From the IMG/VR virus record IMGVR_UViG_3300029951_000019: a stretch of DNA of 20,000 nucleotides; one strand, written 5' to 3'. Source of the DNA: an uncultured virus (IMG/VR IMGVR_UViG_3300029951_000019) (taxonomy: Duplodnaviria; Heunggongvirae; Uroviricota; Caudoviricetes). The translations under genes and the position numbers were made by a program. Below are positions 563 to 18,375 of this stretch, one piece after another (the stretch's first letter is position 1; each line of letters starts with the position of its first letter). The notes under the pieces are model-generated. The model had not been told where the DNA came from, did not search any database, and worked only from the letters and a program-made list of their open reading frames with translations.

Positions 563-748
563 TGCCGCTACCTGATCATGTCGATCGGTGGTGAGTCCCG
601 CTGGCACTTCCCTGGCGAAGAGCCTGAGACAACCCACGTCGACCCGCAGGCCCAACCCGCGGTCACCGTTCCTCTCCCTCCGGCGCAGCTGCCGACGAGC
701 TTCGGCGGTTTCCCCGTCGCGACGGGGGGCGGTGGACCGTGGGGCTAG
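2..748 (+). CDS. terL: Terminase large subunit, 3' part (5'-truncated by the window), containing the C-terminal part of an intein
   Basis: Frame +2 is open from nt 2 to TAG 746-748. The intein end VHN is followed by CRYLIMS, matching the TerL C-terminal nuclease motif DH..DA(L/C)RY. It lies directly upstream of, and overlaps, the portal gene. Confidence 0.8.
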   Translation, partial: KSGRLHTARYPRASIPIIGTTIQTTTRSTISSVCPTRSTALITGISRGAMLSARHGRLTSSWPQNGTAATRGVPGTPRTEGELGSGASRARWRARIAARCSKLPTATNRRGFVLGSAAPMPERRAESTTWTARARAAARRSASIATPRPEIAPAHVLGLSDAGRADVYNLSVEDVEEYFANGVLVHNCRYLIMSIGGESRWHFPGEEPETTHVDPQAQPAVTVPLPPAQLPTSFGGFPVATGGGGPWG

Positions 749-2346
749 GAGCACGTATCCGCGATGCCTTCCGCCGGACCCCGGTAGCCGAGGCCGCCCC
801 GGCCGGTCCGTCGGCTTCGGCTGCGGCGGGCGCGCAGCGTATCGGCTACGAGTACGGCACGGCGCTCATGCCGACGACGTCGCGCACCGCGGCAGCGTAC
901 AGCCAGGAACGCCAGCAGGTCATGACGCAGCTGTACCAGGCGTACCTGACGTGCCCGTGGGTGGCCGCGCCGATCGATCTGATCGCACGCACGGTCACTG
1001 CGGGCGGCCTGCAGGTGGTGTCGGATGCGCTGTCGGACGACGGGACAGTGCCGCCGGACACGCCCGAGGTGACACGGCTGCGCCGCCTGATGCGGTATGT
1101 GAACCCGCGCCAGGACATGGTGCAGCTCCTGCGGTCCGCTGTGATCGACCTGAACTTGTTCGGGGACGCGTACATCGAGATCGTGACGCTGCTGGGCGAG
1201 CCGGTCGCGCTGTACACCCTGGACTCGACGACGATGACGGTCGTCGCGGACGCGCACGGCGAGGTCACCGGGTACATCCAGGTTGTGGACGGCCTGGGCG
1301 GCACGCGGACGGCCGAGTTCACTCCGGAGCAGGTCATCCACATCTCGCTGGACGCGCCGCGGGGTGGCTCCTACGGGGTGGGTCCGACGCAGAAGGCACT
1401 GCTGCCGGTGACGGCGTGGCTGTTCACCGAAGCGACGATCAAGGAGTGTTTCCGCCGGGGCGACCCGCCGCGGATCCACGTCGACCTCGGGCACCTGTCC
1501 GACACTGAGGTGCAGCGGTGGCGCGAGCAGTACATGGTCTTCAATCTGGGGCCGAAGGCGGTCGGCAACCCCACGATCACGACCGGCGACGGCAAGGTCG
1601 AGGTCCTGGACCCGCGCAAGGTCACCGACTACCTGGCCGCCAGCAAGCAACTGCGCGACGAGATCATCGCCACGTTTGGTGTCCCGCCGGGCAAGCTGGG
1701 GATCATCGAGTCCGGCAACCTGGGCGGCGGCACTGGGGAGTCTCAGGACAAAACGCTGCGAATCAACACCATCATCCCGGTGCAGTCCCTCGTCCTGGAG
1801 AAGATCAACTTTCATCTGCTGCAGCAGGGCTTCGGCATCGAGGACTGGCACCTCGAATTCCCCGAGATCGACTACCGCGACTCGACGACCGTTGAGAACA
1901 TCCGCGACACCCGCCTGCGCAACGGCTCCTACACCCTGAACCGCGTCCGCGACGAGATCGGCGAACCCCCCGTCGACGGCGGCGACGACCCGGTCCTGGT
2001 CGACCGCCAGAACCTCGTCAAGTGGTCCGACATGGACGCCATGTCCAAGGCCGGCATTGCCATGAAGCTCAAGGGCACCTCCCTGGAGCCCGACGCCCCG
2101 ACACCCGGCACCCCGGTGACGCTCAGCAAGCCGGATCCCGTTGAGCCGCCCGTTGTCCAGCCCGTCCCGTTCGACGCGTCGCCGCTCGGCCCCGAGGACG
2201 GCCCCGGCCTGGCCGGCGACCTGCCGCAAGGCACGGGGCCCCGCGAGAGCCTCGACGAGGAATGGCGGCGCACCTACCGGGCGCGCCGCACCCAGGCCCT
2301 CGCCGAACTCCCGCCTGCCCGCGAACTCGTAGGAGCAGGGAGGTGA
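739..2346 (+). CDS. Phage portal protein (535 aa)
   Basis: Follows terL. Portal-like motifs: YLTCPWVAAPIDLIARTV, DLNLFGDAYIEIV, EQVIHI, DEIIATFGVPPGKLG, TLNRVRDEIGEPP. Confidence 0.92.
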   Translation: MGLGARIRDAFRRTPVAEAAPAGPSASAAAGAQRIGYEYGTALMPTTSRTAAAYSQERQQVMTQLYQAYLTCPWVAAPIDLIARTVTAGGLQVVSDALSDDGTVPPDTPEVTRLRRLMRYVNPRQDMVQLLRSAVIDLNLFGDAYIEIVTLLGEPVALYTLDSTTMTVVADAHGEVTGYIQVVDGLGGTRTAEFTPEQVIHISLDAPRGGSYGVGPTQKALLPVTAWLFTEATIKECFRRGDPPRIHVDLGHLSDTEVQRWREQYMVFNLGPKAVGNPTITTGDGKVEVLDPRKVTDYLAASKQLRDEIIATFGVPPGKLGIIESGNLGGGTGESQDKTLRINTIIPVQSLVLEKINFHLLQQGFGIEDWHLEFPEIDYRDSTTVENIRDTRLRNGSYTLNRVRDEIGEPPVDGGDDPVLVDRQNLVKWSDMDAMSKAGIAMKLKGTSLEPDAPTPGTPVTLSKPDPVEPPVVQPVPFDASPLGPEDGPGLAGDLPQGTGPRESLDEEWRRTYRARRTQALAELPPARELVGAGR

Positions 2347-2422: not shown

Positions 2423-3013
2423 CTACAGGCCGAGCAGCCGGGCCTTCGCCGCAGCGAACTCCTCGGGCGACAGTACGCCCGACGCGGCCAGCTGCTGCAG
2501 CTTTCCGAGCTCATCCGCGACAGAGCCGACACCAGGCTGAGCAACTGGCTGCTGGAACCGCGCCCGGATGCCGCGGGCTTGTAGCAGGTCGTTGAACTCG
2601 GCGGCACGCTTGGCCTGGGTGGTGATGTTGAAGCCGGTGAGCATCTCCAGGCGGAGCACGATCGCGGCACCGGTGTCGTCGGTGTAGTGGATGTGGATGT
2701 TGTTGTTCTGTTCCAGGCCGCGTGTCCCGTTGCGGGAGCCCGCCGACAGGAGTGCCTCGGCGCCGGTGACCTGCCGGCGGACGATCTGCACGTCGCTGAT
2801 CGCGGCGTAGGGGATCCTGAGCGGCGGCCAGAACTTCTTGCTGCCGATGGTGGGGCTGAGGCCGAAGCGGTCGTCCCAGGTCCGCAGGATAATCTCGCCG
2901 ACCTTCGCCTTCGGTAGCGCGGCGAGGCCGCCCCGGTAGCTGACCTTGTACTCGGCGATCGGCACCGGCGCCCCGTCGACCGGCGTCGGCTTGCTGCTCT
3001 TGAACAGTCCCAT
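2423..3013 (-). CDS. SHOCT-domain protein (196 aa), antisense accessory gene (moron)
   Basis: ATG at 3013 with GGGGGA SD. C-terminal ADELGKLQQLAASGVLSPEEFAAAKARLL is a typical SHOCT motif; the N-terminal region is beta-rich, possibly PH-like. Confidence 0.8.
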   Translation of the reverse strand: MGLFKSSKPTPVDGAPVPIAEYKVSYRGGLAALPKAKVGEIILRTWDDRFGLSPTIGSKKFWPPLRIPYAAISDVQIVRRQVTGAEALLSAGSRNGTRGLEQNNNIHIHYTDDTGAAIVLRLEMLTGFNITTQAKRAAEFNDLLQARGIRARFQQPVAQPGVGSVADELGKLQQLAASGVLSPEEFAAAKARLLGL

Positions 3014-3175
3014 GGTGTCCCCCTGGGGTTCGGTGGGCGGCCAGCTTCGCAGCGCCACATGATCCACCGTCAGCACGTTACGCAACGGTGACGCACGGTT
3101 CGATATCCGCGCGCGCCGATGGACGGCGGCGCCCTTCACGACCGGCCACCCGGCAAATCCCACGAGCGGAGCATC

Positions 3176-3919
3176 ATGGCCCAGGCAGGCGAGCAGGAAC
3201 CCGTCGTCACCGGACGCGTCAACACCGACATCACCGTTGACCACCTGACCGTCAACCGGGGCGCGAACCTGACCAATCAGACCACTGCCCCCGCGACCCC
3301 GTCCGGTGGTGCTGTCGTCTACTCCCAGTACGGCGTCGCCGTGTTCATGGACACCTCCGGCAATGTCACCTCGCTGAAGAACCCGGACCCGACGGCCGCG
3401 GACTCCGGTCTGATCGCCTGGTCCTTCGACCCGGCCGCAGCGGCATCGACGTTCCTGACCACCGCGGGGGTCGTGTACCTCTCGAAGGTCATCGTGACGC
3501 AGCAGCAGACCCTCACCAACGGACTCGTCGAGGTATCTACGGCAGGTGGCACACTGACCGCGTCCGAGAACTACCTGGCGCTGTTCAACTCGACCGGCAC
3601 GCAGATCGCGATCTCGGCTGACCAGAGCACGGCCTTCGCCAGCGCTGGCCTGATCACCGCTGCCTGGGCGAGCCCCGTAGTGAGCGCCGCCCCGGGTGCC
3701 TACTACGTTGGGGTGCTGTGCAACGGCGGCACCGCGATCACCCTGGCCTCAGGGTCGGCGCTCAAGCCCGGCGGCGTCTCGATCGGCAACGCCGGCCTGG
3801 CCACGGCGACGGGCCGGTTCCTGTCCTCGGGTACGTCGCAGACGGCGATGCCGCAGTCGGTGACGCTGGGCTCGGCGTCGGGCAACCTCGCCGCGACGAT
3901 CTGGGCAGCGATCAGCTAG
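3176..3919 (+). CDS. Ser/Thr/Ala/Gly-rich beta-sandwich protein, putative virion fibre or decoration protein (247 aa)
   Basis: ATG 3176 with GGAG SD and host-like codon use. GLIAWSFDPA...AGVVYL...GAYYVGVLCNG resembles C-terminal domains of actinophage minor tail or fibre proteins. Confidence 0.6.
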   Translation: MAQAGEQEPVVTGRVNTDITVDHLTVNRGANLTNQTTAPATPSGGAVVYSQYGVAVFMDTSGNVTSLKNPDPTAADSGLIAWSFDPAAAASTFLTTAGVVYLSKVIVTQQQTLTNGLVEVSTAGGTLTASENYLALFNSTGTQIAISADQSTAFASAGLITAAWASPVVSAAPGAYYVGVLCNGGTAITLASGSALKPGGVSIGNAGLATATGRFLSSGTSQTAMPQSVTLGSASGNLAATIWAAIS

Positions 3920-3988
3920 GGCCACCTGCGGGGCAGATGGCGACTTCAACTCCGCAGGTCTCGCTCAACGCACGGCGGGGGGCGATGG

Positions 3989-5452
3989 GTGAACGGCAGC
4001 ATGATCGCCCTGTATCCGCCGCTTGACCTCGCCGAGCAGCTTGCCGTCCCTGGCGGCATCTTGCCCGAGTCCATGCATTGCACGATTGCCTACACGGGCC
4101 CGGCGGTCGGCGTCGACCGGGACACGCTGCGCAAGGTCGCGGCGAGCCTCGCCGACCGGCCACCGATCCAGGCAAGCATCTCCGGCCATGCCCGGTTCAC
4201 CGGCGGCGAACTGGATGTCATCGTTGCCCTCGTCGACGGGCCCGGAATCGAGGACCTGCGCCGCGACACCCTTGATGTACTCGCCGCGCACGGCATAGAC
4301 GTCCCGCGCGAGCACGGCCACACCGCGCACATCTCGATCGCATTCATCGACCCGGACGCCGAGTCGCCCATCGACCGCATCCCGTGCACGCCCGTCCTGT
4401 TCACCACGGTCAACGCCGTCCACGCAGGCGACCGCACCGGCTACACCCTCGCCAGTGAGACCGCCAGCAGTCTGCGCGAGGACGCCCGGACCGCATTCGC
4501 CACGGGCTGGGCCAGCGTCCGCGACGCCCCGATGACCGACGAGGTCCGCGCAGCCTCGATCGCCGCAGTCGAATGGGCGTGCGGGCATCCCGATGCCCCG
4601 GCCGTCCTCGAAGCCACCATCAAGATCGGGCAGCTTGAAGGGACCTGGGCGCTGATCTACCAGCGCCGCGAGAAGCGCGAGAAGCAGCACCAGGCCGCAG
4701 TCCTCGCCGCCTGGGCCAAGTGCCTGCAACTCATCTCCCTCGACGAACTCGTCGGAAGCTTCCACGCCCAAGCACCCAATCTGCCCGACCAGTCGCCGCA
4801 GGCCATCAGGATGCAGGCCCTCGCCATCGCACGCCAAGCATTCATTGGCGCCAACATGGCCGACCCCGCCTACCAGAAGTTCCTCGACAGCATCACCACT
4901 GCGCTGGGTGATGCCCAGGCTGAAGGTGCAGCGGCAGGGCGTGCCATCAGCGGCAGCAAGCACGACATGGCCGCCGCCTACGACTCAGCCCGCGACGACA
5001 TCAGCGACCTCACGACCTGGGGGCAGGCACCACCCGTCGCAGCGAAAATCATGTCCGGCGCGGCTTCGACACTCGCGCGACTCCTCGCCAAGGGCTTCGC
5101 CGCGAAGCTGACCCTCGCAGCGCTCCTCGCCGCCGTCCGCGCCGCACTCACCGGCGACGGCGCCACCCCGGTCACCGCCCCCCTCGACATGGCCATGGGC
5201 CAGGCATGGAGCAGCGGCGCGGTCGGCACATTCACTGACGGCGGCGTCACCATGCTCAACTACTGGACCGCCGGCGGCAACAACGTCTGCGCGGCCTGCC
5301 AGGACGCCGAGAGCGGCAGCCCGTACGCCATCGCCGACGCGCCCGTGCCGCCGCTTCACCCGAACTGTCGCTGTGTGCTTTCGCCGGCGGATGCCGATGT
5401 CCCCGGCGCTCCCCCGCCGTCAACCGCGATCCCCGACGAAGGCGAGGAGTAG
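3989..5452 (+). CDS. 2H phosphoesterase (2'-5' RNA ligase/Acb1-like) fused to a MuF-like head morphogenesis protein (487 aa)
   Basis: Two 2H motifs, HCT (4076-4084) and HIS (4328-4336). C-terminal MuF motifs NNVCAAC and PPLHPNCRC (HPNCRC at 5357-5374). Located between portal and protease. Confidence 0.82.
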   Translation: MNGSMIALYPPLDLAEQLAVPGGILPESMHCTIAYTGPAVGVDRDTLRKVAASLADRPPIQASISGHARFTGGELDVIVALVDGPGIEDLRRDTLDVLAAHGIDVPREHGHTAHISIAFIDPDAESPIDRIPCTPVLFTTVNAVHAGDRTGYTLASETASSLREDARTAFATGWASVRDAPMTDEVRAASIAAVEWACGHPDAPAVLEATIKIGQLEGTWALIYQRREKREKQHQAAVLAAWAKCLQLISLDELVGSFHAQAPNLPDQSPQAIRMQALAIARQAFIGANMADPAYQKFLDSITTALGDAQAEGAAAGRAISGSKHDMAAAYDSARDDISDLTTWGQAPPVAAKIMSGAASTLARLLAKGFAAKLTLAALLAAVRAALTGDGATPVTAPLDMAMGQAWSSGAVGTFTDGGVTMLNYWTAGGNNVCAACQDAESGSPYAIADAPVPPLHPNCRCVLSPADADVPGAPPPSTAIPDEGEE

Positions 5453-5454
5453 CT

Positions 5455-5826
5455 GTGGCGATCTATCCGTACGGCCGCAAGGTCTGGTCCCTGGACGGCG
5501 CCTCCCTCATTGGGGCGTCCAGCACCTCCTCCGTGGTTCTGGACATCCACGACGTCACCGACCTGTGGCTCGCCGCCTTCGTCGCGAACGCCCCCAGCGG
5601 CACGACCCCGACACTCACCGTCCAGGTCGACCTCCTCGACCAGGACGCCAACGTCTACCCTGCCGCCCTGGCACTGACCGCGCTCACGGCAGCTGGCCAT
5701 CAGTCCGGGTCCTGCGGCCTGCACACCTCGAACCTGGTCCTGCCGATGCTGTGCCAGGTCACGTGGACGCTCGGCGGCACCACCCCCGCGTTCACTGGTG
5801 TGACGCTCAGCCTGTACGGCAGGTGA
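5455..5826 (+). CDS. Hypothetical beta-rich virion-module protein (123 aa)
   Basis: GTG 2 nt after the upstream stop, GAGGAG SD, GC3-rich codons. Confidence 0.7.
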   Translation: MAIYPYGRKVWSLDGASLIGASSTSSVVLDIHDVTDLWLAAFVANAPSGTTPTLTVQVDLLDQDANVYPAALALTALTAAGHQSGSCGLHTSNLVLPMLCQVTWTLGGTTPAFTGVTLSLYGR

Positions 5827-6044
5827 CCGTGTACATGCGACCGGCCAGGGCGCCGGGACGGCACCACGACGAAGCCACCGCTGAGGTCGAGTTCCGCGAC
5901 TGGCTGATCACCGCCATCGACGAGGATTCGCGTGTCCGCGAGGCGATCCTGCGGCTGTTCGCCGCCGACCGGGCCCGCAAGAAGCCCGCACCTCCCCCTG
6001 CAGCCACGGCGCGCGCCGCCCGGACCCGCCGAGGAGGTAGCTGA
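5823..6044 (+). CDS. Hypothetical protein (~73 aa) with a basic C-terminus
   Basis: GTGA overlap with the upstream stop (alternative ATG at 5835) and TGATG overlap with the downstream gene. Core EVEFRDWLITAIDEDSRVREAILRLF looks helical. Confidence 0.6.
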   Translation: MTVYMRPARAPGRHHDEATAEVEFRDWLITAIDEDSRVREAILRLFAADRARKKPAPPPAATARAARTRRGGS

Positions 6045-7855
6045 TGGCCGCCGCTGCGCTCAAGCCATTCACCGGCACATTCCTGTACCCAGGCGTCAGC
6101 CTCAACCGGTGTCTGTACACCAAGGAGCTGATCGGTAAGGCCGTCGCTCGGATGCAGGAGCGCATCGCAGATCCCGACGCCCTACCGATTGTGATGCGTA
6201 CACATCACAGCGCCGGTGATAATTCCCAGCTCATCGTGGGTCGGGTCGTCAGAGTCCAGCAAGCACCCGATGGCTCCGCCCGCTTCGAAGCCCGCTGGTA
6301 CGACACCGCGCCAGCCCGGGACATCGCGGCGCTCGTGCAGCCAGCCGACGGCGGGCCGCCCGGCCTCAAGAGCGTCAGCATCCACGGCTACTTCCTCGGC
6401 GAGACCAAGAGCGTCGAAGTCAACGGCCAGATGGCCACCACCGCCGACGACTTGGAAGTCGACGCCGTCGACATGACGGCAACGCCCGGAGTCGTCCAGG
6501 CGCTCATCGACTCCCCCGGCGGATCGCCGCCGACCGAATCCGCGCCGGCCACCGCCGGGCGTACCCCTATCGCCGAAACCTGGGAGGTCCCCGTGGCCAC
6601 CGTCATCACCGAAGAGGCGGCCACGCCGGTCCCCGAGGCCGCACCGCAGTCCAGCGGGCCGTTCGCCGACCCGGGCTACCAGAAGGACAAGCAGAAGCGG
6701 TACGACCTCTCGACGAAGATCAAGGCCAAGGCGGCGTGGAGCTACATCCACCAGGCCGACAATGCGCGCCTGTACACGTCGAAGCAGCTCAAGAACATCA
6801 AGGCCAAGATTCGAAAGGCCCTCCAGGGCTTCGGCGTGATGGTGTCTGCCGAGAACTGGCTCATCGAAACCGTCGCTCCAGTCTCCGAATCCCTCGCCGA
6901 ATGCTGGGCCATGGACCAGTCCGGCGGCGACATCTACATCTCGCTGACGAACGGGCCGACGACCGTCAGCGTCACCTCGCGCCTCATCGACGCCCACGAC
7001 CTCCAGGCGGTCGGCGCCGCCGCCATGGCCGGCGCCTGCGACGCACTAACCGCCCTGGACCCGGACCTCGACGACGACATCGACGTCGAAGGCGCACCGG
7101 CCGAAGACATCGACCGGGGCCTCGGCGACGCCGACGAACCCGAAGACGAGGAGGACCCCGACATGGCTGACGAACCCCAGCCCGGCTCCGGCTGCCCGTG
7201 CGGCTGCGGCTGCTCCGTCCCGCACCAGATGGCAGGCGGCCCCGGCTGCCCGTGCCCGTGCAACGACTGCGGCACCTGCAACTCGACGCAGGCGTCCGCG
7301 GACGAGACCGCACCCGCAGTCGCCCCCCAGCTTTCGACGCCGGACCCGGTTGTCGAACCCGTCCCCACAGTGAAGGAGTCCGCCGTGACCGACGTCGTCA
7401 CCCCGGCCGCCGAGACGGCGGCTCCCGCCACCCCGGCACCCACCACCGCCCAGTCCGTCGCGCCGCTGATGGTCGGCCTCACTCAGGAGCAGTTCGCGCA
7501 GCTCCTGCAGCACGTCGCACCGGCCGCACCGGTCGCCGAGGCTGCACCGGTCGCAGCGCCGGCCACCCCTGTCGCGCCGGTCGCCCCCGCTGTCGTGGCG
7601 CAGGAGGCCGCGGCTCCGGTCACCGCACCGGCCCCGACCGAGGAGACCTACACCAAGGCGCAGGTCGACGAGGCCATCAATGCGGCGATGAAGGACGCCA
7701 TTCCGCAGCTCCTCAAGGCCTACGGTCTGCCGCCGCGCGCCGGGCACCGCACCACCGAGACCGACAGCCCCGACGCCAAGCCCAAGACCGGCGCCGAGAT
7801 GTGGGACGACCGCGCCGACCACCTTCTCGGCGACTTCGGGAAGATCGGCGTCTGA
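6044..7855 (+). CDS. Prohead protease / scaffold polyprotein (603 aa) with a DUF6582-like domain and a Cys-rich insert
   Basis: N-terminal protease-like motifs (GVSLNRCLY, MRTHH, GLKSVSIHG, AVDMTATPGV), then FADPGYQKDKQKRY..AAWSYI, then a Pro/Ala linker and helical C-terminus. Upstream of the major capsid gene; GGAGG SD. Confidence 0.75.
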   Translation: MAAAALKPFTGTFLYPGVSLNRCLYTKELIGKAVARMQERIADPDALPIVMRTHHSAGDNSQLIVGRVVRVQQAPDGSARFEARWYDTAPARDIAALVQPADGGPPGLKSVSIHGYFLGETKSVEVNGQMATTADDLEVDAVDMTATPGVVQALIDSPGGSPPTESAPATAGRTPIAETWEVPVATVITEEAATPVPEAAPQSSGPFADPGYQKDKQKRYDLSTKIKAKAAWSYIHQADNARLYTSKQLKNIKAKIRKALQGFGVMVSAENWLIETVAPVSESLAECWAMDQSGGDIYISLTNGPTTVSVTSRLIDAHDLQAVGAAAMAGACDALTALDPDLDDDIDVEGAPAEDIDRGLGDADEPEDEEDPDMADEPQPGSGCPCGCGCSVPHQMAGGPGCPCPCNDCGTCNSTQASADETAPAVAPQLSTPDPVVEPVPTVKESAVTDVVTPAAETAAPATPAPTTAQSVAPLMVGLTQEQFAQLLQHVAPAAPVAEAAPVAAPATPVAPVAPAVVAQEAAAPVTAPAPTEETYTKAQVDEAINAAMKDAIPQLLKAYGLPPRAGHRTTETDSPDAKPKTGAEMWDDRADHLLGDFGKIGV

Positions 7856-8495: not shown

Positions 8496-8521
8496 GCATG
8501 CCCACGAAAGACGAGGCACTC

Positions 8522-9880
8522 ATGCCGACCGAACTTGAGGAAGCCCTGACGGCTGCAACTTCCGTCCCGGGCCTCGTGCAAAAGCAGATCGACCCGCTGC
8601 TCCTTGAGTACCAGCGCCGGTTCGCGCCGCTCCTCGCGGCGATCCCGGCCCGCCAGTGGGGCTCCACGCAGTACTTCTTCAACCGGCGCACCCAGCGCCC
8701 GGACGCCGGTGGCGTCGTCGACGGCGGCGCCCGCCCGCTCGGCAACTCGACCTACGAGCAGGCCGTCTTCAACATCAAGCTGTTCCAGGCCGTCGGCGCT
8801 GTGACGGGCTTCGCGCAGACCGTCACCCGCGACCTCGTTGGTGACCTGCGGCAGCTGGAAATCGACGGCACCGTCCAGTCGATGCTGTGGTCCGTCGAGA
8901 ACTCCTTCATCTGGGGCAACGACCCGGCGACCGCCAACGGCCTGTACCCGATCTGCTCCGGCCTGGACTACCTGGTCTCGAACTTCACCAACGGGACCGG
9001 CTCCAACGCCTACACCAACGCGACCGACGGCGCGGGCGCGACCTTCAGCACCAAGATCCTCGACTCGCTGATGGCACAGGTCTCCAGCAACGCGGGTCTG
9101 CCCGTCAACGGCGGCAGCTACATGTTCATCATGTCGCCCGCGATCCTCGGATCCATCTCGCAGCTGCTCAGCACGCAGCAGCGGTTCATGGGCGAGATCG
9201 AGGTCGCCGCCGGTCTGATCGTCCCGACCTACCGCGGCGTCCCGCTGGTCGAGTCCTCGTTCCTCGCGCCCCGCTCCAACCAGATGGGCGCGGTCTCCAC
9301 CGCGACCGCCACCACCGGCGGCACCCTCGCGGCGACCACGTACTACTACCAGGTCAGTGCGGTGATCGCCCGCTTCGGCGAGATCCAGTGCTCCACCGAG
9401 GTCTCCCAGACCACCACTGGCTCCACGTCCACGGTGACGTTGAGCTTCTCCACCCCGACCAACATGCCGGACGGCGCCTCCCCGATCCTGTACAAGGTCT
9501 ACCGGTCCACCACCACCGGCACCGAGTCCCTCGTCGGCGTCGTCGACGCGTTCGACACCACCGGCACTGCCGTGACCAGCATCATCGACACCGGCACCAA
9601 CCTGCAGACCAACAGCTCCGGCAACACCGGCCCGACCCTGTACCAGGGCGGCAACAGTGGGGCGAAGGCGCGCGGCGCGGGCCACGAGGACATCTACCTC
9701 GTGCCGAAGGACCCCAACTTCTTCCTGCGCCCGTACACCCGCGACATGCAGGTCATCCCGCTGGCACCGACCACGACCAGCCCGGACGTCCTCCCGTTCG
9801 CCGTGGTCACCGACACCGTGGCTGCGTTGCGCGCGCCGAAATATGCCGGGCGGTACTCGCGCCTGGTCAGTGCTGTCTGA
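8522..9880 (+). CDS. Major capsid protein (452 aa; SU10-MCP/DUF5309-like HK97 fold) with an inserted Ig/FN3-like domain
   Basis: ATG 8522 with GAGG SD. Motifs include IDPLLLEYQRRFAPLL, IKLFQAVGAVTGFAQ, SFIWGND, GLDYLV, TYRGVPLVESSF. Positioned after the scaffold gene. Confidence 0.88.
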   Translation: MPTELEEALTAATSVPGLVQKQIDPLLLEYQRRFAPLLAAIPARQWGSTQYFFNRRTQRPDAGGVVDGGARPLGNSTYEQAVFNIKLFQAVGAVTGFAQTVTRDLVGDLRQLEIDGTVQSMLWSVENSFIWGNDPATANGLYPICSGLDYLVSNFTNGTGSNAYTNATDGAGATFSTKILDSLMAQVSSNAGLPVNGGSYMFIMSPAILGSISQLLSTQQRFMGEIEVAAGLIVPTYRGVPLVESSFLAPRSNQMGAVSTATATTGGTLAATTYYYQVSAVIARFGEIQCSTEVSQTTTGSTSTVTLSFSTPTNMPDGASPILYKVYRSTTTGTESLVGVVDAFDTTGTAVTSIIDTGTNLQTNSSGNTGPTLYQGGNSGAKARGAGHEDIYLVPKDPNFFLRPYTRDMQVIPLAPTTTSPDVLPFAVVTDTVAALRAPKYAGRYSRLVSAV

Positions 9881-10242: not shown

Positions 10243-10896
10243 GTGGCCGACACCGTAGCGCCGCTGGCCACGCCCGCCCAGTTCTCGGAAGGGCCCTTGG
10301 CGGACCTGGTGCGGGACTACTCCACCGATGCGCTGATGGACCTGCTGATGGAAGCGACCCGCATGCTGGAGGACTACGCCGACCGCAGGCTGGCGCCGTT
10401 CACCGACATGGTTGAGACGCAGCGCGCGGACGCCTTGGACATCGAGGATGCCCTCGACGCGTATGTGCCGTTGGATCCGACGTCGCAGTTGGGGTTCTCG
10501 CGGGCGCAGTCGCTGGGTTCGACGCTGCTGGTGCGGCACTTCTGGTTGCGGGAGTTCCCGCCGCGCACCCCCGAGTACTGGGCCGGGTCGTTGACGAGCG
10601 TGCAGTTGCTGCGTTCGTTCTCGGGCGTCCAGGACGTGGATGTGACGCAGTTGCAGTACGAGCCGGACACCGGGCATGTGCGTTTCCAGCTGGGGACGTT
10701 CGTGCCGCCGGGGACGACGATCGTGTCCACGTACTCGGGCGGCTACTCGACGGTCCCGTCGTCGCTGGTGCGGGCGTGCAAGTTCGCGACGGCGAGCCTG
10801 GCGGTCGCTGAGCTCGATCCGGCGGTGCAGTCGCATGATCCGGATGACCTGTGGTCGCGGGCCACGCAGATTGTCGGCTCGTACGCGAGGGGCTGA
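10243..10896 (+). CDS. Head-tail connector/adaptor protein (217 aa)
   Basis: LATPAQF, LLMEATRMLEDYADRRL, TYSGGYSTVPSSLVRACKFAT are typical of gp6/gp15-like adaptors. Confidence 0.75.
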   Translation: MADTVAPLATPAQFSEGPLADLVRDYSTDALMDLLMEATRMLEDYADRRLAPFTDMVETQRADALDIEDALDAYVPLDPTSQLGFSRAQSLGSTLLVRHFWLREFPPRTPEYWAGSLTSVQLLRSFSGVQDVDVTQLQYEPDTGHVRFQLGTFVPPGTTIVSTYSGGYSTVPSSLVRACKFATASLAVAELDPAVQSHDPDDLWSRATQIVGSYARG

Positions 10897-10898
10897 CC

Positions 10899-11324
10899 GT
10901 GGCGGCGAAGCGCAAGGCGATGTCGGCGGCGACGAAGGCCAAGATTTCGAAGGCCTTGAAGGGCAAGCACCACAAGCACCACGGGCACAGGGAGTCCGCA
11001 GCAACTCGCGCGAAGATCGCTGCGAAGCTCAAGGCCCGCTATGCGGAGCGCAAGAAGGCACGGCTGGCGCGGCTCGCCGCGGCGAAGGCCGCGCGCGCGA
11101 AGGCCAGGGCTGCGAAGACCGCCGCCCGCAAGGCCGCGCGGAAGACCGCCCGGAAGTCGCGTCACCGTGTGCTGCGGGCCGGCCAGCGCTCACCGCTCAC
11201 CGCTGCCCAGCGGCAGAACCGGTCCGAGATGGGCTACCGGCCGAAGCGCCGCGTGGGTTCGCGGGTCGGCAACTCCTCGCCTCGGTCTCGCCGGATCCGG
11301 CGGATTCATCACCACGTGAGGTAG
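10899..11324 (+). CDS. Very basic Lys/Arg/Ala-rich protein (141 aa) with two NUMOD3-like motifs
   Basis: GTG 2 nt after the upstream stop, GAGGGG SD, and it fills the gap to the next gene exactly. 48 K+R versus 3 acidic residues; motifs MSAATKAKISKALKGK and HRESAATRAKIAAKLK. Confidence 0.75.
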   Translation: MAAKRKAMSAATKAKISKALKGKHHKHHGHRESAATRAKIAAKLKARYAERKKARLARLAAAKAARAKARAAKTAARKAARKTARKSRHRVLRAGQRSPLTAAQRQNRSEMGYRPKRRVGSRVGNSSPRSRRIRRIHHHVR

Positions 11325-14595: not shown

Positions 14596-17500
14596 GTGGG
14601 CGATTCCCTGATCCCCCCGATCATGATCGAGCTGGGCGGCACGGCGGCCGACGCCATCAAGGCCATCGCCAGCACCGTCGCAGCGTTCGAGGACCTCACC
14701 GAGGCCGCTGCGGCGATGGGCGATGCCGTCGACGAGGTCTTCGCGTCCCTCGACGCGGGCGTCGAAAGCTTCACGGCCATCAAGACTGCGGCGAAGTCCG
14801 CAAGCACCTCCATGCGGTCGATGGCCAAGTCCACGGCCTCTGTCTCCGCTGCCGCCGATGATGCCGCTGAGGCGATCGACACGGGTTTCGCTGCGATGGC
14901 CGAGGCGTCGGCGTCGATGGCGGAGGCCGTCAAGGCTGCCTCCGTCGAGGCGTCCGAGGGCCTGTCCGCGATGGGTGAGGAAGCCAAGGCTGCAGGCCTG
15001 TCCATGGGCGCCATGGGCGAGGACATCGTCGCGTCGATGCGCGAGGCCGCTGCTGCGATCGCCGAGGCCGCCGGTGAGATCAAGGCCGCTGCGGTGGAGA
15101 TGGGCGAGTCCGTCGAGGCTTCGTCCGCGGAGGCGGGTGAGGCGACCGAAGGGCTCGGGTCCAAGTTCCTGGGCCTGGGTGAGATGTCGGGCCTGCTCAA
15201 GGCTGCGGTGCCGCTGTCGATCGCGGCGATCGGCTACGAGTCGGTCAAGGCCGCGACGACGTTCCAGTCGAGCACGACGCGGCTGGTCACCTCCGCCGGG
15301 GAGATCTCCTCGAACCTGGGGGTGGTCCGCTCGGGGATGCTGAGCATGGCCGGGCAGGTCGGCGTGTCTGCGGACGACCTGTCGCAGGCCATGTACTACG
15401 TCGAGGCCGCCGGTTTCCACGCCGCGGACGGCCTGACGGTCCTCAAAGCGGCTGCGCAGGGCGCGGCGGCGGAGGGCGCGGACACCACGACCGTTGCGCA
15501 GGCGCTGACGGACGTCCTCGTCGACTACCACAAGCCCGCGCAGGACGCCGCGACCGTGACGTCGGAGATGATCGCGGCTGTTGCGGGCGGCAAGACGAAC
15601 CTGCAGGACTTCTCGGGGGCGTTCGCGAGCATCGTGCCTGCGGCGTCGGCGGCGGGGATCTCCTTCGCGGACGTGGCGGCTGCGCTGGCGGAGATGACCA
15701 ACCACGGCTTCCCTGCCGCCCGGGCCTCCCAGAACCTGGCCCAGGCGCTGCGTTCGCTGCTGACTCCGACGGCGGTCATGCAGGGCGCGTTCACGAAGTA
15801 CGGGCTGTCCAGTGACGTCCTGAAGGAGAAGCTGGCCGGGCCGAACGGGTTGACGGACGGCATGGAGTACGTGTCGCAGATCGCCTCGAAGTCCGCGAAG
15901 GAGGGCACGCCCGAGTTCGCGAGCATCCTCAAGCAGCTGATGGGTACCGCGCCCGGCGCGAACGCGGCGCTGGCGACGACGGGCGAAAACTTCCAGGCCA
16001 CCGCCAACGGCATCATCGCGGTCAACAAGGCGTCAGCCGATGCGCAGGGCAACGTGCGCGGCTTCGCACTGGTGCAGAAAAACCTGGGCCAGCAGCTCAA
16101 GGACTTGAAGGCCGGTTTCGATGCGCTGCTGATCCGCATCGGCGACGGGCTCATCCCGGTGTTCTCGGAGTTCATCGGCTACGTCATGTCCCACGGGATC
16201 CCGGCGCTCCACACTCTGGGAACGGCCCTGTCGGGTATCGCGTCGGGGTTCTCGGGTGCGGCGGGCAAGGCACCGGCACCGGCGCAGGGCCTCAATGCGC
16301 GGATGCAGGAGGGGGGCGGTGCACTGCCTGCGCCGCCGCCGTTGACGGCGTGGCAGCAGGTCGGGCAGACGTTGAAGACCGTCGCGGACGATGTCGGCAA
16401 GTTTGTGGAGGCCGCGGCCCGTCTCGGGGCGGTGCTGGTGAAGACGGTGGGCCCGGCGCTGGCGACGCTGGTGGGTGGCGCGGTTCTGGGTGCGCTGTCG
16501 ATTTTGGGGTCGATCCTGTCGACGGCGGTGACTCCGGCGTTGAAGGGTCTGGCGGATTTCGCCGAGAAGCACAAGACGATCATGGATTGGATCGTCGGCG
16601 CGTTCCTCGCGCCACTGGCGCTGCGGCTCGCAGCGCTCGCGGTCATCAAGCCGATCATGGCGATCGCGGGGCTCGCGAAGAGCATCATCACGTTCCCGAT
16701 CAACCAGAGCAAGCAGATCGTGACGTCCGTGAAGAGCATGTGGGCGAACCTCTTCGGCGCGGAGGCGACCAAGGACGCCGAGGGCAAGGCCATCCCCGCG
16801 ATCGAAGGGTTCTTCCCCAAGCTGCAGCGGATCTTCAAGAGCGGTTTCGCGAGCATCAAGTCCGGCTGGGCGAAGCTCTTCGGCACGCAGGAAATCAAGG
16901 ACGACGAAGGCAACGTCACCGGCGTAGTGCAGGGCTTCTTCCCCAAGCTGCTCAAGAAGTTCAAGTCCGGGTGGACGTCGCTCGCCGGCGCCGCGAAGAC
17001 CGGGTGGATGAAGGTCTTCGCCACCCAGGACGTCACCGATGAAGAGGGCAACGTCATCGGCCAGATCCAGGGCTTCTTCCCGAAGATCGGGAAGCTGTTC
17101 AAGTCTGGCTTTACGTCCCTGGTCGGCGCTGTGAAGTCCGGCTGGGGAAAGGTCTTCGGCGCGGAGGAGGCCACCGACGAAGAAGGCAACGTCATCCCCG
17201 CGGTCAAGGGCTTCTTCCCGAAGATCCTCGACAAGATGCAGACGGGCTGGGATTCGCTCGTCCAGGGGGCCCAGTCGGGGTGGGCTGCGATCTTCGGCGC
17301 GGAGGCGATGGAGGACGAGGAAGGCAACGCGGTCCCGGCGGTCGAGGGCCTGTTCTCGAAGCTGGGCGGCACCTTCAAGACCGGCTGGTCGACGCTTTCG
17401 GGCGGCGCGAAGACCGCGTGGCAGGGCATCTTGAACATGAAGAACGCCATCACCGGCCTGAAGGACGCCGAGGAACTCGCCGAGGGCGCGACCGAGGGCG

Positions 17501-18375
17501 AAGCAGTTGCGACGGGCGAACTCGACGTCGCGATGGACGCCAACCCCATCGGGCTGATCGTCATCGCGATCGGTTTGCTGGTGATCGCTTTCCTGTATTG
17601 CTGGGACCATTTCAAGGGCTTCCGTGATTTCTGGATCGCCGCCTGGGGCCTGATCCAGGACGCGGCGAAGGAAGCCTGGAAGTTGATCCAGGACGCCTTC
17701 AACGGGATCGCGAAGGCAGCGGAGTGGCTCTGGAACAACGCGATCATGCCAGCGGTCCACGGCATCGAAAACGCGTTCACGTCGCTAGTCCACGGGGCGT
17801 CGCAGGCCTGGTCCGACATCGTCAGCGCGGGCGAGAAAGCCGCGTCGTGGCTGGCCGGGCTGCCGGGCCGGATCCTCGGCTGGTTCAACGACGCCGGGTC
17901 GTGGCTCTACAACGCAGGCGTTTCGATCATCGAGGGCCTGTGGAACGGCATCCAGTCGATGGGCTCGTGGATCGCCGGGGCGATCATGGGGCTGATCAAG
18001 GACGTGGTCCCGGGTCCGGTCCTGAAGATCCTGGGGATCAACTCGCCGTCGAAGGTGTTCCACGAGATCGGCCTCGGCGTGACCGAGGGCCTCGTCAACG
18101 GCCTGATCGCGGGCGGCCCGAGCACGGCAGCCGCCTCCACACAGATGGCGAAGGGCGTCATCGCCGCCGGGTCGCGGGCCATGGCCGGATCCCGGGCCCT
18201 GGCCATGGCCGGCGGTGGCAGCACCGCCGGCGGTGGCAGCGGCACGGTCTACAACGTGACGGTCAACGTCGCGGGCACGGTGACGTCGGAGAAAAACTTG
18301 CGGGATCAGATCCAGAGGCAGTTCTTGCAGCTGGGTATGCGCAACTCTCAGACGTACCAGCCGTACCGGCGCTGA
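14596..18375 (+). CDS. Tape measure protein (1259 aa), TP901-like core
   Basis: Long Ala/Gly-rich helical protein. Hydrophobic segments, ANPIGLIVIAIGLLVIAF..WDHFKGFRDFW, LGINSPSKVF and VYNVTVNVAG. Confidence 0.95.
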   Translation: MGDSLIPPIMIELGGTAADAIKAIASTVAAFEDLTEAAAAMGDAVDEVFASLDAGVESFTAIKTAAKSASTSMRSMAKSTASVSAAADDAAEAIDTGFAAMAEASASMAEAVKAASVEASEGLSAMGEEAKAAGLSMGAMGEDIVASMREAAAAIAEAAGEIKAAAVEMGESVEASSAEAGEATEGLGSKFLGLGEMSGLLKAAVPLSIAAIGYESVKAATTFQSSTTRLVTSAGEISSNLGVVRSGMLSMAGQVGVSADDLSQAMYYVEAAGFHAADGLTVLKAAAQGAAAEGADTTTVAQALTDVLVDYHKPAQDAATVTSEMIAAVAGGKTNLQDFSGAFASIVPAASAAGISFADVAAALAEMTNHGFPAARASQNLAQALRSLLTPTAVMQGAFTKYGLSSDVLKEKLAGPNGLTDGMEYVSQIASKSAKEGTPEFASILKQLMGTAPGANAALATTGENFQATANGIIAVNKASADAQGNVRGFALVQKNLGQQLKDLKAGFDALLIRIGDGLIPVFSEFIGYVMSHGIPALHTLGTALSGIASGFSGAAGKAPAPAQGLNARMQEGGGALPAPPPLTAWQQVGQTLKTVADDVGKFVEAAARLGAVLVKTVGPALATLVGGAVLGALSILGSILSTAVTPALKGLADFAEKHKTIMDWIVGAFLAPLALRLAALAVIKPIMAIAGLAKSIITFPINQSKQIVTSVKSMWANLFGAEATKDAEGKAIPAIEGFFPKLQRIFKSGFASIKSGWAKLFGTQEIKDDEGNVTGVVQGFFPKLLKKFKSGWTSLAGAAKTGWMKVFATQDVTDEEGNVIGQIQGFFPKIGKLFKSGFTSLVGAVKSGWGKVFGAEEATDEEGNVIPAVKGFFPKILDKMQTGWDSLVQGAQSGWAAIFGAEAMEDEEGNAVPAVEGLFSKLGGTFKTGWSTLSGGAKTAWQGILNMKNAITGLKDAEELAEGATEGEAVATGELDVAMDANPIGLIVIAIGLLVIAFLYCWDHFKGFRDFWIAAWGLIQDAAKEAWKLIQDAFNGIAKAAEWLWNNAIMPAVHGIENAFTSLVHGASQAWSDIVSAGEKAASWLAGLPGRILGWFNDAGSWLYNAGVSIIEGLWNGIQSMGSWIAGAIMGLIKDVVPGPVLKILGINSPSKVFHEIGLGVTEGLVNGLIAGGPSTAAASTQMAKGVIAAGSRAMAGSRALAMAGGGSTAGGGSGTVYNVTVNVAGTVTSEKNLRDQIQRQFLQLGMRNSQTYQPYRR
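16741..17418 (+). repeat. Five 42-46-aa tandem repeats within the tape measure protein
   Basis: Trp-anchored units start at 16741, 16867, 17005, 17143 and 17281; consensus W..(L/V/I)FG.....D.EGN.....(V/I).GFFPK....FK(S/T)G(F/W). Confidence 0.9.

Follow-up and report, generated by a model that had tools for sequence, protein, structure and literature searches.

An N-terminal 2H phosphoesterase domain in a MuF-like head protein of an uncultured phage: a candidate capsid-delivered enzyme against host immune messengers

Phage head proteins that carry a 2H phosphoesterase domain have been described before. In the passages that concern them, Iyer, Burroughs, Anand, de Souza, and Aravind (2017, PMC5512222) reported fusions of 2H domains with MuF or portal proteins and proposed that they act as RNases or degrade nucleotides used in defence, and Iyer et al. 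(2022, PMC9503650), in the part of their text devoted to such fusions, suggested that they are packaged in the head and injected against signalling by SMODS, cyclic mononucleotides, and CRISPR. Thus, the literature already contains both such fusions and the notion that an anti-signalling enzyme is injected. Here, we analyse a gene of this kind, which we call the 2H-MuF gene, in a window of 20,000 nucleotides (nt), that is, the whole stretch of DNA under study, which forms the final 20 kb of a 76,321-bp record of an uncultured virus of the Caudoviricetes (IMG/VR IMGVR_UViG_3300029951_000019; classed as linear and 82% complete). In this Streptomyces-type phage, the gene (3989-5452, plus strand) encodes a domain with the modelled fold of a 2H phosphoesterase, both catalytic motifs intact, joined to a MuF-like module, and we propose that the product is a candidate head-loaded enzyme acting against host immune messengers. 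Compared with the proteins of Iyer et al., as they are presented in the text of those papers, ours is alike in joining 2H to MuF among virion genes, and the proposed role is the same; its distinguishing points are that the enzyme is N-terminal in a stand-alone MuF protein, without a fused portal, and that the family is spread in phages and prophages of Streptomycetaceae.

Two other groups of MuF proteins are relevant. In the sections of two papers that deal with it (PMC6316719; PMC5576092), SPP1 gp7 is described as binding the portal strongly and being carried into the procapsid in few copies, and SPP1 virions lacking gp7 are only about 25% infectious. The protein in the window shares with SPP1 gp7 and Mu gpF the C-terminal Cys/His region, the slot after the portal gene, and the helical body, but it differs from them in its 2H domain, which neither gp7 nor gpF has, and in falling below the cut-offs of the MuF models. 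The MuF polymorphic toxins, as treated in the relevant parts of Jamet et al. (2017, PMC5576092), are comparable in that MuF carries an enzymatic module and in that many carriers of 2H-MuF genes are proviruses; however, the toxin is C-terminal there, whereas our protein has its enzyme at the N-terminal end, and this enzyme is no obvious toxin. The text of that paper contains neither "phosphoesterase" nor "RNA ligase".

More is known about phage 2H enzymes that are not part of head proteins. Doherty et al. (bioRxiv 10.1101/2025.08.21.671373), in the portion of the preprint available, sorted 75 phage 2H phosphodiesterases (PDEs) into eight structural groups, of which seven were assayed, and reported that these enzymes cleave messengers used in cyclic-oligonucleotide-based antiphage signalling (CBASS) and in type III CRISPR, with a range that depends on the group (broad in groups 3, 7, and 8, and narrow in groups 2 and 5). 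The same portion mentions 13 multidomain 2H PDEs and does not contain the words "portal", "capsid", or "fusion"; likewise, the text of the Acb1 paper (PMC9117128) does not contain "portal", "virion", "packaged", or "fused". A free Acb1-like protein of phage G is reported, in the passage that mentions it, as not detected in the phage G proteome. In the literature that we consulted, phage enzymes and sponges directed against nucleotide-signalling defences are made after infection has started, and we found none demonstrated to be capsid-borne.

The open reading frame (ORF) at 3989-5452 is a real gene. It can start at GTG 3989, giving 487 amino acids (aa), or at ATG 4001, giving 483 aa, and the latter fits the 483 aa of the public cluster representative; a possible ribosome-binding site, a run of G at about 3977-3982, lies just 5′ of the start. 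Its G+C content at third codon positions is 0.85, and the pattern over the three codon positions resembles that of the adjoining head genes, in a window with a G+C content of 65-72%. An antisense ORF at 3965-4963 was rejected as a shadow frame (G+C at first codon positions, 0.84). The whole window gave zero megablast matches against 50,697 phage records. In a search of 5.8 billion proteins, the 2H-MuF protein found 103 clusters at 90% identity, nearly all of them full-length and 32-100% identical. These clusters form a compact family, with proteins of roughly 490 aa, whose named sources are Streptomyces, Kitasatospora, and Streptacidiphilus. For the analysis of conservation, we aligned 35 full-length relatives from the 103 clusters, chosen for spread and 33-78% identical to the window protein.

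The N-terminal domain (aa 1-155; 3989-4453) is clearly a 2H phosphoesterase by its modelled fold, and its activity is predicted. An AlphaFold2 model of the domain alone has a predicted local distance difference test score (pLDDT) of 93.7 and a predicted template modelling score of 0.87. When this model was compared with 48,161 representative chains of the PDB (VIA Z), the top 20 matches were all 2H enzymes (Z 17.9-9.2), rank 21 was CNPase, which is likewise a 2H enzyme (Z 6.2), and all lower ranks had Z of 4.7 or less, the value at which unrelated folds start. The best match was a Deinococcus CPDase (Z 17.9, root-mean-square deviation 3.2, 158 residues aligned), followed by Pyrococcus LigT (15.7), E. 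coli LigT (15.6), human Usb1 (14.3), YjcG (14.2), AKAP18 (13.5), rotavirus VP3 (13.2), ns2 of mouse hepatitis virus (12.7), the PDE of phage BCSR5 (11.3), Acb1 of phage FBB1 (11.0), and the cyclic GMP-AMP PDE of penguinpox virus (10.0). Foldseek, proposed as a check in an earlier note made from the letters of the window, agrees on the 2H fold (match to 5h7e, E 4.6e-6).

At the level of sequence, PF13563 matches aa 28-125 of the window protein slightly below its cut-off (E 3e-5; 24.6 bits against 27) and, with E ≤ 0.01 as the limit, 34 of the 35 relatives, the best of them at 1.2e-15. Two "RNA ligase" families of PHROGs match aa 3-157 (E 6.7e-13 for phrog_2659, and 2.7e-9). When the window protein alone was run by phmmer against the sequences of the PDB, the one match was at chance level (2qp2, E 0.073) and was discarded. 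The two catalytic motifs that the earlier note had recognised are found at 4076-4084 (H30-C31-T32, HCT) and 4328-4336 (H114-I115-S116, HIS), and they are conserved throughout the alignment: H30, T32, and H114 are unchanged in 35/35 relatives, and position 116 is Ser in 9 and Thr in 26. Both motifs also align with those of LigT, ThpR, and Acb1. That an intact 2H site is kept in all relatives, down to 33% identity, counts in favour of the proposal made below.

The public label of these clusters, "2'-5' RNA ligase family protein", overlooks the second half of the protein, and the present finding corrects it. In the AlphaFold model of the whole protein (pLDDT 86.5), residues 162-417 are helical, as the note had anticipated for the middle region, and they are followed by a small beta, zinc-knuckle-like end and a disordered tail. 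We place the helical body of the MuF-like module at aa 166-420 (4484-5248), and the model, compared with BFVD by Foldseek, matches proteins named "minor capsid", "capsid morphogenesis", or "head morphogenesis" over 267-474 columns (E 5e-5 to 8e-4); a "putative structural protein" of Gordonia GMA2 was matched as well. Compared with solved structures, this half stayed within the background to be expected of helical proteins, its best match having Z 7.0 over 72 residues. The C-terminal motifs on which the note had based its MuF assignment (VCAAC...HPNCRC, aa 433-462; 5285-5374) are strongly conserved, C437, H457, C460, R461, and C462 being kept in 35/35 relatives and C434 in 34/35. Several MuF-type PHROGs match aa 414-472 (E 2.3e-7 to 2e-4), and 13 of the 35 relatives, the best with E 8e-7, match PF04233 within the limit of E ≤ 0.01. 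Furthermore, this end aligns with the MuF domain of a relative, P0123 (BLASTP E 1e-10), whose MuF domain clears its Pfam cut-off of 29.6 bits with 49.6 bits. Residues 170-487, used as the query to look for this MuF module with other cargo, found at least nine close relatives, each with a 2H domain, among the matches listed. Only a 25-aa disordered tail follows the MuF motif, so there is no C-terminal toxin domain; the model falls below a pLDDT of 50 at residues 472-487, which form an acidic, Pro-rich end (5402-5449).

The position of the gene points to the head as well. The portal gene of the window lies at 739-2346 (plus strand; PF04860, E 3.1e-27; phrog_12, E 1.2e-40). It ends 1.6 kb upstream of the 2H-MuF gene, and two inserted genes separate them. 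A 603-aa head-module gene, orf603 (6044-7855, plus strand), and the major capsid protein gene (8498-9880, plus strand; PF17236, E 2e-9; phrog_752, E 5.6e-25) follow downstream. A scan of IMG/VR found 66 related loci, 42 of which hold a full-length, non-identical 2H-MuF gene. A portal homologue lies upstream on the same strand in 25 of the 32 loci with more than 2 kb of upstream sequence, within 500 nt in 17 of those 25, and the remaining 7 loci may hold portals too distant for tblastn. Downstream, an orf603 homologue follows in 33/33 loci and a capsid gene in 22/22. Thus, with the portal upstream and orf603 and the capsid downstream across loci, the 2H-MuF gene sits in the classical MuF slot.

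The company that the 2H domain keeps elsewhere is similar. An exhaustive, profile-free search with the domain gave 2,459 representatives at E ≤ 0.001 (915 at E ≤ 1e-10), and we scanned with Pfam 43 longer relatives picked from the best 150 of the 2,459. Ten of these multidomain proteins have a portal domain, four a Pfam MuF domain, and two a prohead protease, while six have a Zeta/AAA_33 kinase, four an intein, and one each an ADP-ribosyltransferase, a lethal-factor-type peptidase domain, and a histidine phosphatase. Three actinophage proteins (P0123, P0177, and P0198) are portal-2H-MuF fusions in which 2H precedes MuF as in the window protein, but in which the portal is part of the same chain; the 2H domain of P0123 is 53% identical to that of the window. 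The MuF Cys/His motif occurs in 33 of the best 150 representatives, and its coding sequence lies 3′ of the 2H domain in all of them except P0238. In addition, there are stand-alone 2H relatives, annotated "RNA ligase", in cultured actinophages: Gordonia phage DalanDe gp19 directly follows the portal, Brevibacterium phage Cantare gp9 is one small gene past the portal, and Arthrobacter phage Salgado gp18 follows the maturation protease. Taken together, three independent lines, namely the gene slot, the fusions to portal, MuF, and protease, and the stand-alone 2H genes beside portal or protease, indicate the capsid as the address of the enzyme.

We propose the following mechanism. The product would be a minor head protein of the MuF/SPP1 gp7 type, whose MuF module (aa ~166-470) binds the portal and from which the 2H phosphoesterase, with its catalytic residues intact, hangs on a flexible tether. 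Docking of the MuF module on the portal during procapsid assembly, expected here because of the homology to SPP1 gp7, would leave a few copies of the enzyme in each head; these would exit with the DNA at infection and act in the new host ahead of any phage gene expression. The likeliest task would be to hydrolyse the (oligo)nucleotide messengers of host immunity, for example in CBASS or type III CRISPR, as is done by phage 2H enzymes of the Acb1 type. Our confidence decreases along this chain: portal binding and encapsidation are probable, ejection into the host is slightly favoured over its absence, and to the whole chain, including the anti-signalling substrate, we assign a probability of about 40%. 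The stronger version, in which the virion comes pre-loaded with a broad-range messenger-degrading PDE that destroys signals of CBASS, type III CRISPR, or related systems as soon as infection begins, is possible but on the doubtful side. With few copies per head, a catalytic cargo would be more suitable than a sponge. Thus, of the suggestion in the earlier note that the virion may deliver a signal-degrading or RNA-end-processing enzyme, loading into the capsid gains support from the slot, the fusions, and the neighbourhood, and the anti-defence function is a candidate one.

If the proposal is correct, a head-loaded 2H enzyme would act ahead of host sensing, and a few molecules would suffice. 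In the stronger version, it would become the first demonstrated capsid-delivered anti-signalling enzyme, and MuF and portal proteins would serve actinophages as a common dock onto which interchangeable counter-defence cargo is loaded. The compact two-module family described here, common in Streptomycetaceae prophages, is also a handy test case for the prediction made in 2017.

Several observations weigh against the proposal. At the level of the MuF half, the window protein scores below the curated cut-offs of both PF04233 (E 0.023; 15.9 bits against 29.6) and TIGR01641 (E 2.8e-4; 21.2 bits against 39.65). The enzyme precedes MuF in the chain, and the proposal presumes that this is the end of a MuF protein that points into the capsid or leaves it. 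We found no bench experiment on any 2H-MuF fusion in the literature that we searched. On the enzyme side, the window protein has no match to Pfam Acb1 (PF23474) at E ≤ 1, its fold is closer to the housekeeping LigT/ThpR/CPDase enzymes (Z 15.6-17.9) than to Acb1 (Z 11.0-11.3), and the hhalign score against ThpR nearly equals that against T4 Acb1. The same record also holds genes of the RNA-repair type, namely a PNKP phosphatase and RlaP. Finally, in the available portion of Doherty et al., the enzymes of groups 1 and 6 cleaved 0 of 18 messengers; thus, an intact 2H site does not predict the substrate or an anti-signalling activity.

The question of the branch to which the domain belongs deserves some detail. 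With a 20-sequence alignment of the 2H domain family, hhalign gave a probability of 94.1% (E 1.3e-7) against T4 Acb1 (gene 57B), with both motifs in register, and 91.7% (E 7.9e-7) against E. coli ThpR. Run against the PDB, the family profile gave E 0.008-0.05 for proteins of the LigT type and E 0.04-0.05 for the phage PDE 9q2g/9q2y, which is of the Acb1 type. Pfam models divide the relatives in much the same way: PF23474 matches 20 of the 35 at E ≤ 0.01 (best, 7.1e-6), and PF02834 (LigT_PEase) matches 19 of the 35 at the same threshold and does not match the window protein. Thus, sequence profiles tie the domain equally to T4 Acb1 and to E. coli ThpR and leave branch and substrate undecided; as far as they go, the domain is related to Acb1 but not classifiable as Acb1.

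Comparison with individual enzymes gives a similarly mixed picture. T4 Acb1 and PDE-9 of Burkholderia phage BCSR5 (PDB 9Q2G/9Q2Y) share with the window domain the 2H fold, both His-x-Thr/Ser motifs, and similar-looking surroundings of the motifs (VP..P.E.H.T; LDS..L; Y-T/N-P/A-H-x-T-L-x-Y), but Acb1 is a free protein of 140-165 aa with a terminal lid, is not known to be virion-borne, and has a Z of about 11 to the window domain. Bacterial and archaeal LigT/ThpR 2',3'-cyclic phosphodiesterases (5H7F, 1VGJ, and 4QAK) are the best structural matches and align across the whole domain, although they are cellular single-domain proteins with 14-18% sequence identity to it. A more remote parallel is the C-terminal 2',5'-phosphodiesterase of rotavirus VP3 (4RPT), which is also a 2H PDE that degrades an immune oligonucleotide, and VP3 is virion-borne; however, it belongs to a eukaryotic double-stranded RNA virus and works in a capping-enzyme context, so this is an analogy only. 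Where an Acb1-type terminal lid was sought, the model of the window domain passes directly into the low-confidence linker and a helix. According to the available text of Doherty et al., lids are poorly predicted in phage 2H PDEs, and PDE-9 uses an N-terminal lid of 15 residues. Most of the more distant relatives of our protein have an N-terminal extension of 10-20 aa with a conserved motif like Pro-Asp-Tyr/Phe-Ser-Asp-Gly, and this extension is absent from the window protein and its closest relatives.

The affinity to LigT and ThpR is what sustains the explanation that we rank second after messenger degradation, in which a packaged 2',3'-cyclic phosphodiesterase of the ThpR/LigT type heals RNA. 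Host metal-independent defence RNases leave cyclic-phosphate ends on tRNA and mRNA, and their opening by the injected enzyme would be the first step of repair. We regard this as rather unlikely, but it has several points in its favour. The best structural matches are CPDase and the two LigT proteins (Z 17.9, 15.7, and 15.6), and ThpR is reached by hhalign at E 7.9e-7. Outside the window but within the same record, a gene for a PNKP-type phosphatase (PF25109, E 4.5e-33) adjoins one for a RlaP nucleotidyltransferase (PF10127, E 3.4e-15), both on the minus strand at L005:11638-12892; the PNKP gene matches only the phosphatase half of phrog_505. Furthermore, the kinase fused to the 2H clade in six of the 43 multidomain relatives is a P-loop kinase. 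Kinase-CPDase healing modules occur in tRNA ligases, and the 2H-kinase fusions recall them. On the other hand, neither an RNA ligase (PF09414) nor RtcB was found in the 76-kb record, itself 82% complete, and the PNKP phosphatase is present in only 2 of 10 other records with a 2H-MuF gene and in none of the 3 of those that are at least 90% complete. In addition, the relevant passage of PMC5512222 states that the 2H versions of polyvalent, MuF, or portal proteins are never seen beside RNA ligases, which counts against a role in healing.

The third possibility is offensive: the injected 2H domain would be a Usb1-like RNase that cuts or trims host RNA, leaving 2',3'-cyclic phosphate ends and causing an early shutdown. 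This is the option favoured in the passages of PMC5512222 on these proteins, where fusions of 2H to MuF or portal are seen as parallel to those of the PBECR RNase domain, and human Usb1 scores high (Z 14.3) in the structural comparison of our domain. Nevertheless, that Z is below those of LigT, the sequence has no specifically Usb1-like feature, and many carriers are classed as proviruses with no linked immunity gene identified, so we consider an offensive RNase improbable. We think just as little of the last alternative, in which the enzyme is not a delivered effector: it would work in the cell that makes the phage or within the head under assembly, or be lost ahead of maturation, and the MuF fusion would serve co-expression or assembly only. 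In its favour, the ejection of MuF-linked cargo in this phage group is itself a prediction, and the flexible linker of variable length could allow removal by a protease. Against it, unless the enzyme is encapsidated, it is difficult to see why many lineages would have fused the 2H clade to portal, MuF, and prohead protease, and SPP1 gp7 is described, in the relevant section of PMC6316719, as lying inside the procapsid and supporting the start of infection.

The linker (aa 156-165; 4454-4483) was of interest because the earlier note had pointed to Glu sites right after the 2H domain as places where a protease might release it. This part of the suggestion does not hold up in the relatives, in which E157 is present in 12/35 (15 gapped) and E164 in 7/35; the linker as a whole has a pLDDT below 50 at residues 157-159 and gaps in 15-17 of the 35 sequences. 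A Val-Ala-Lys protease motif is absent from the window protein, from the products of the 123-aa gene and orf603, and from the capsid and portal proteins, and is found in 1 of the 35 relatives. A protease might still release the 2H domain, although no conserved feature speaks for this.

Some relatives carry an additional element in the same protein. In P0077, P0111, P0114, P0122, and P0133, an intein (Hint_2/Intein_splicing) is found inside the MuF half, encoded 5′ of the Cys/His motif, and such intein-bearing 2H-MuF proteins are 714-884 aa long. This could be taken as a hint that the MuF site is functionally important. As for annotation, phage 2H phosphoesterases are labelled "RNA ligase" in many records, including T4 gene 57B, that is, Acb1 (L074:3953-4411, minus strand, in the copy of the RefSeq record used), and some are labelled "aldolase class I" or "capsid maturation protease". 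These labels are misleading.

The genes next to the 2H-MuF gene differ in how widely they are shared. Of the two genes between it and the portal, one (2423-3244, minus strand) encodes 273 aa with a SHOCT domain at their C-terminal end (PF09851, E 5.6e-7), and the other (3119-3919, plus strand) encodes 266 aa without a Pfam match and weakly matches the C-terminal end of phrog_4013 (E 4.4e-7). The SHOCT gene resembles an inserted moron, and its start overlaps the next gene; it was found in 0/42 related loci, and the 266-aa gene in 4/42. From their distribution, both appear to be insertions particular to the window phage and a few others. On the other side, a 123-aa gene without a family match (5455-5826, plus strand) begins 3 nt past the stop of the 2H-MuF gene. 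Of 39 related loci, 25 have a homologue 3′ of 2H-MuF, in most cases at a distance of 45-215 nt, and the product of this gene may belong to the head or act together with the enzyme. In the product of orf603, DUF6582 (PF20223, E 2.1e-8) covers aa 209-269, and there are also a stretch rich in Cys and long runs rich in Pro and Ala. This product matched no protease or scaffold family, and it is a candidate for the scaffold or protease of this phage group.

Further along the head module, an adaptor gene lies 3′ of the capsid gene, and the tape measure gene is found at 14596-18375. The module is also rich in elements of the homing type. An HNH endonuclease gene (7859 to ~8500, minus strand; phrog_826, E 1.3e-47) lies between orf603 and the capsid gene, an ORF with a NUMOD3 motif (10851-11324, plus strand) overlaps the end of the adaptor gene, and the terminase large subunit, whose end occupies 1-748 of the window, contains an intein. 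The N-terminal splicing blocks of this intein are in the same record at L007:16532-19000, and its C-terminal end (...VLVHN|C) is at about 491-565 of the window. Between the splicing blocks, the terminase frame runs through about 215 aa of low-complexity text with no stop, and a gene for a 214-aa HNH endonuclease is complete there in another frame (L007:18175-18819, ending at 498 of the window).

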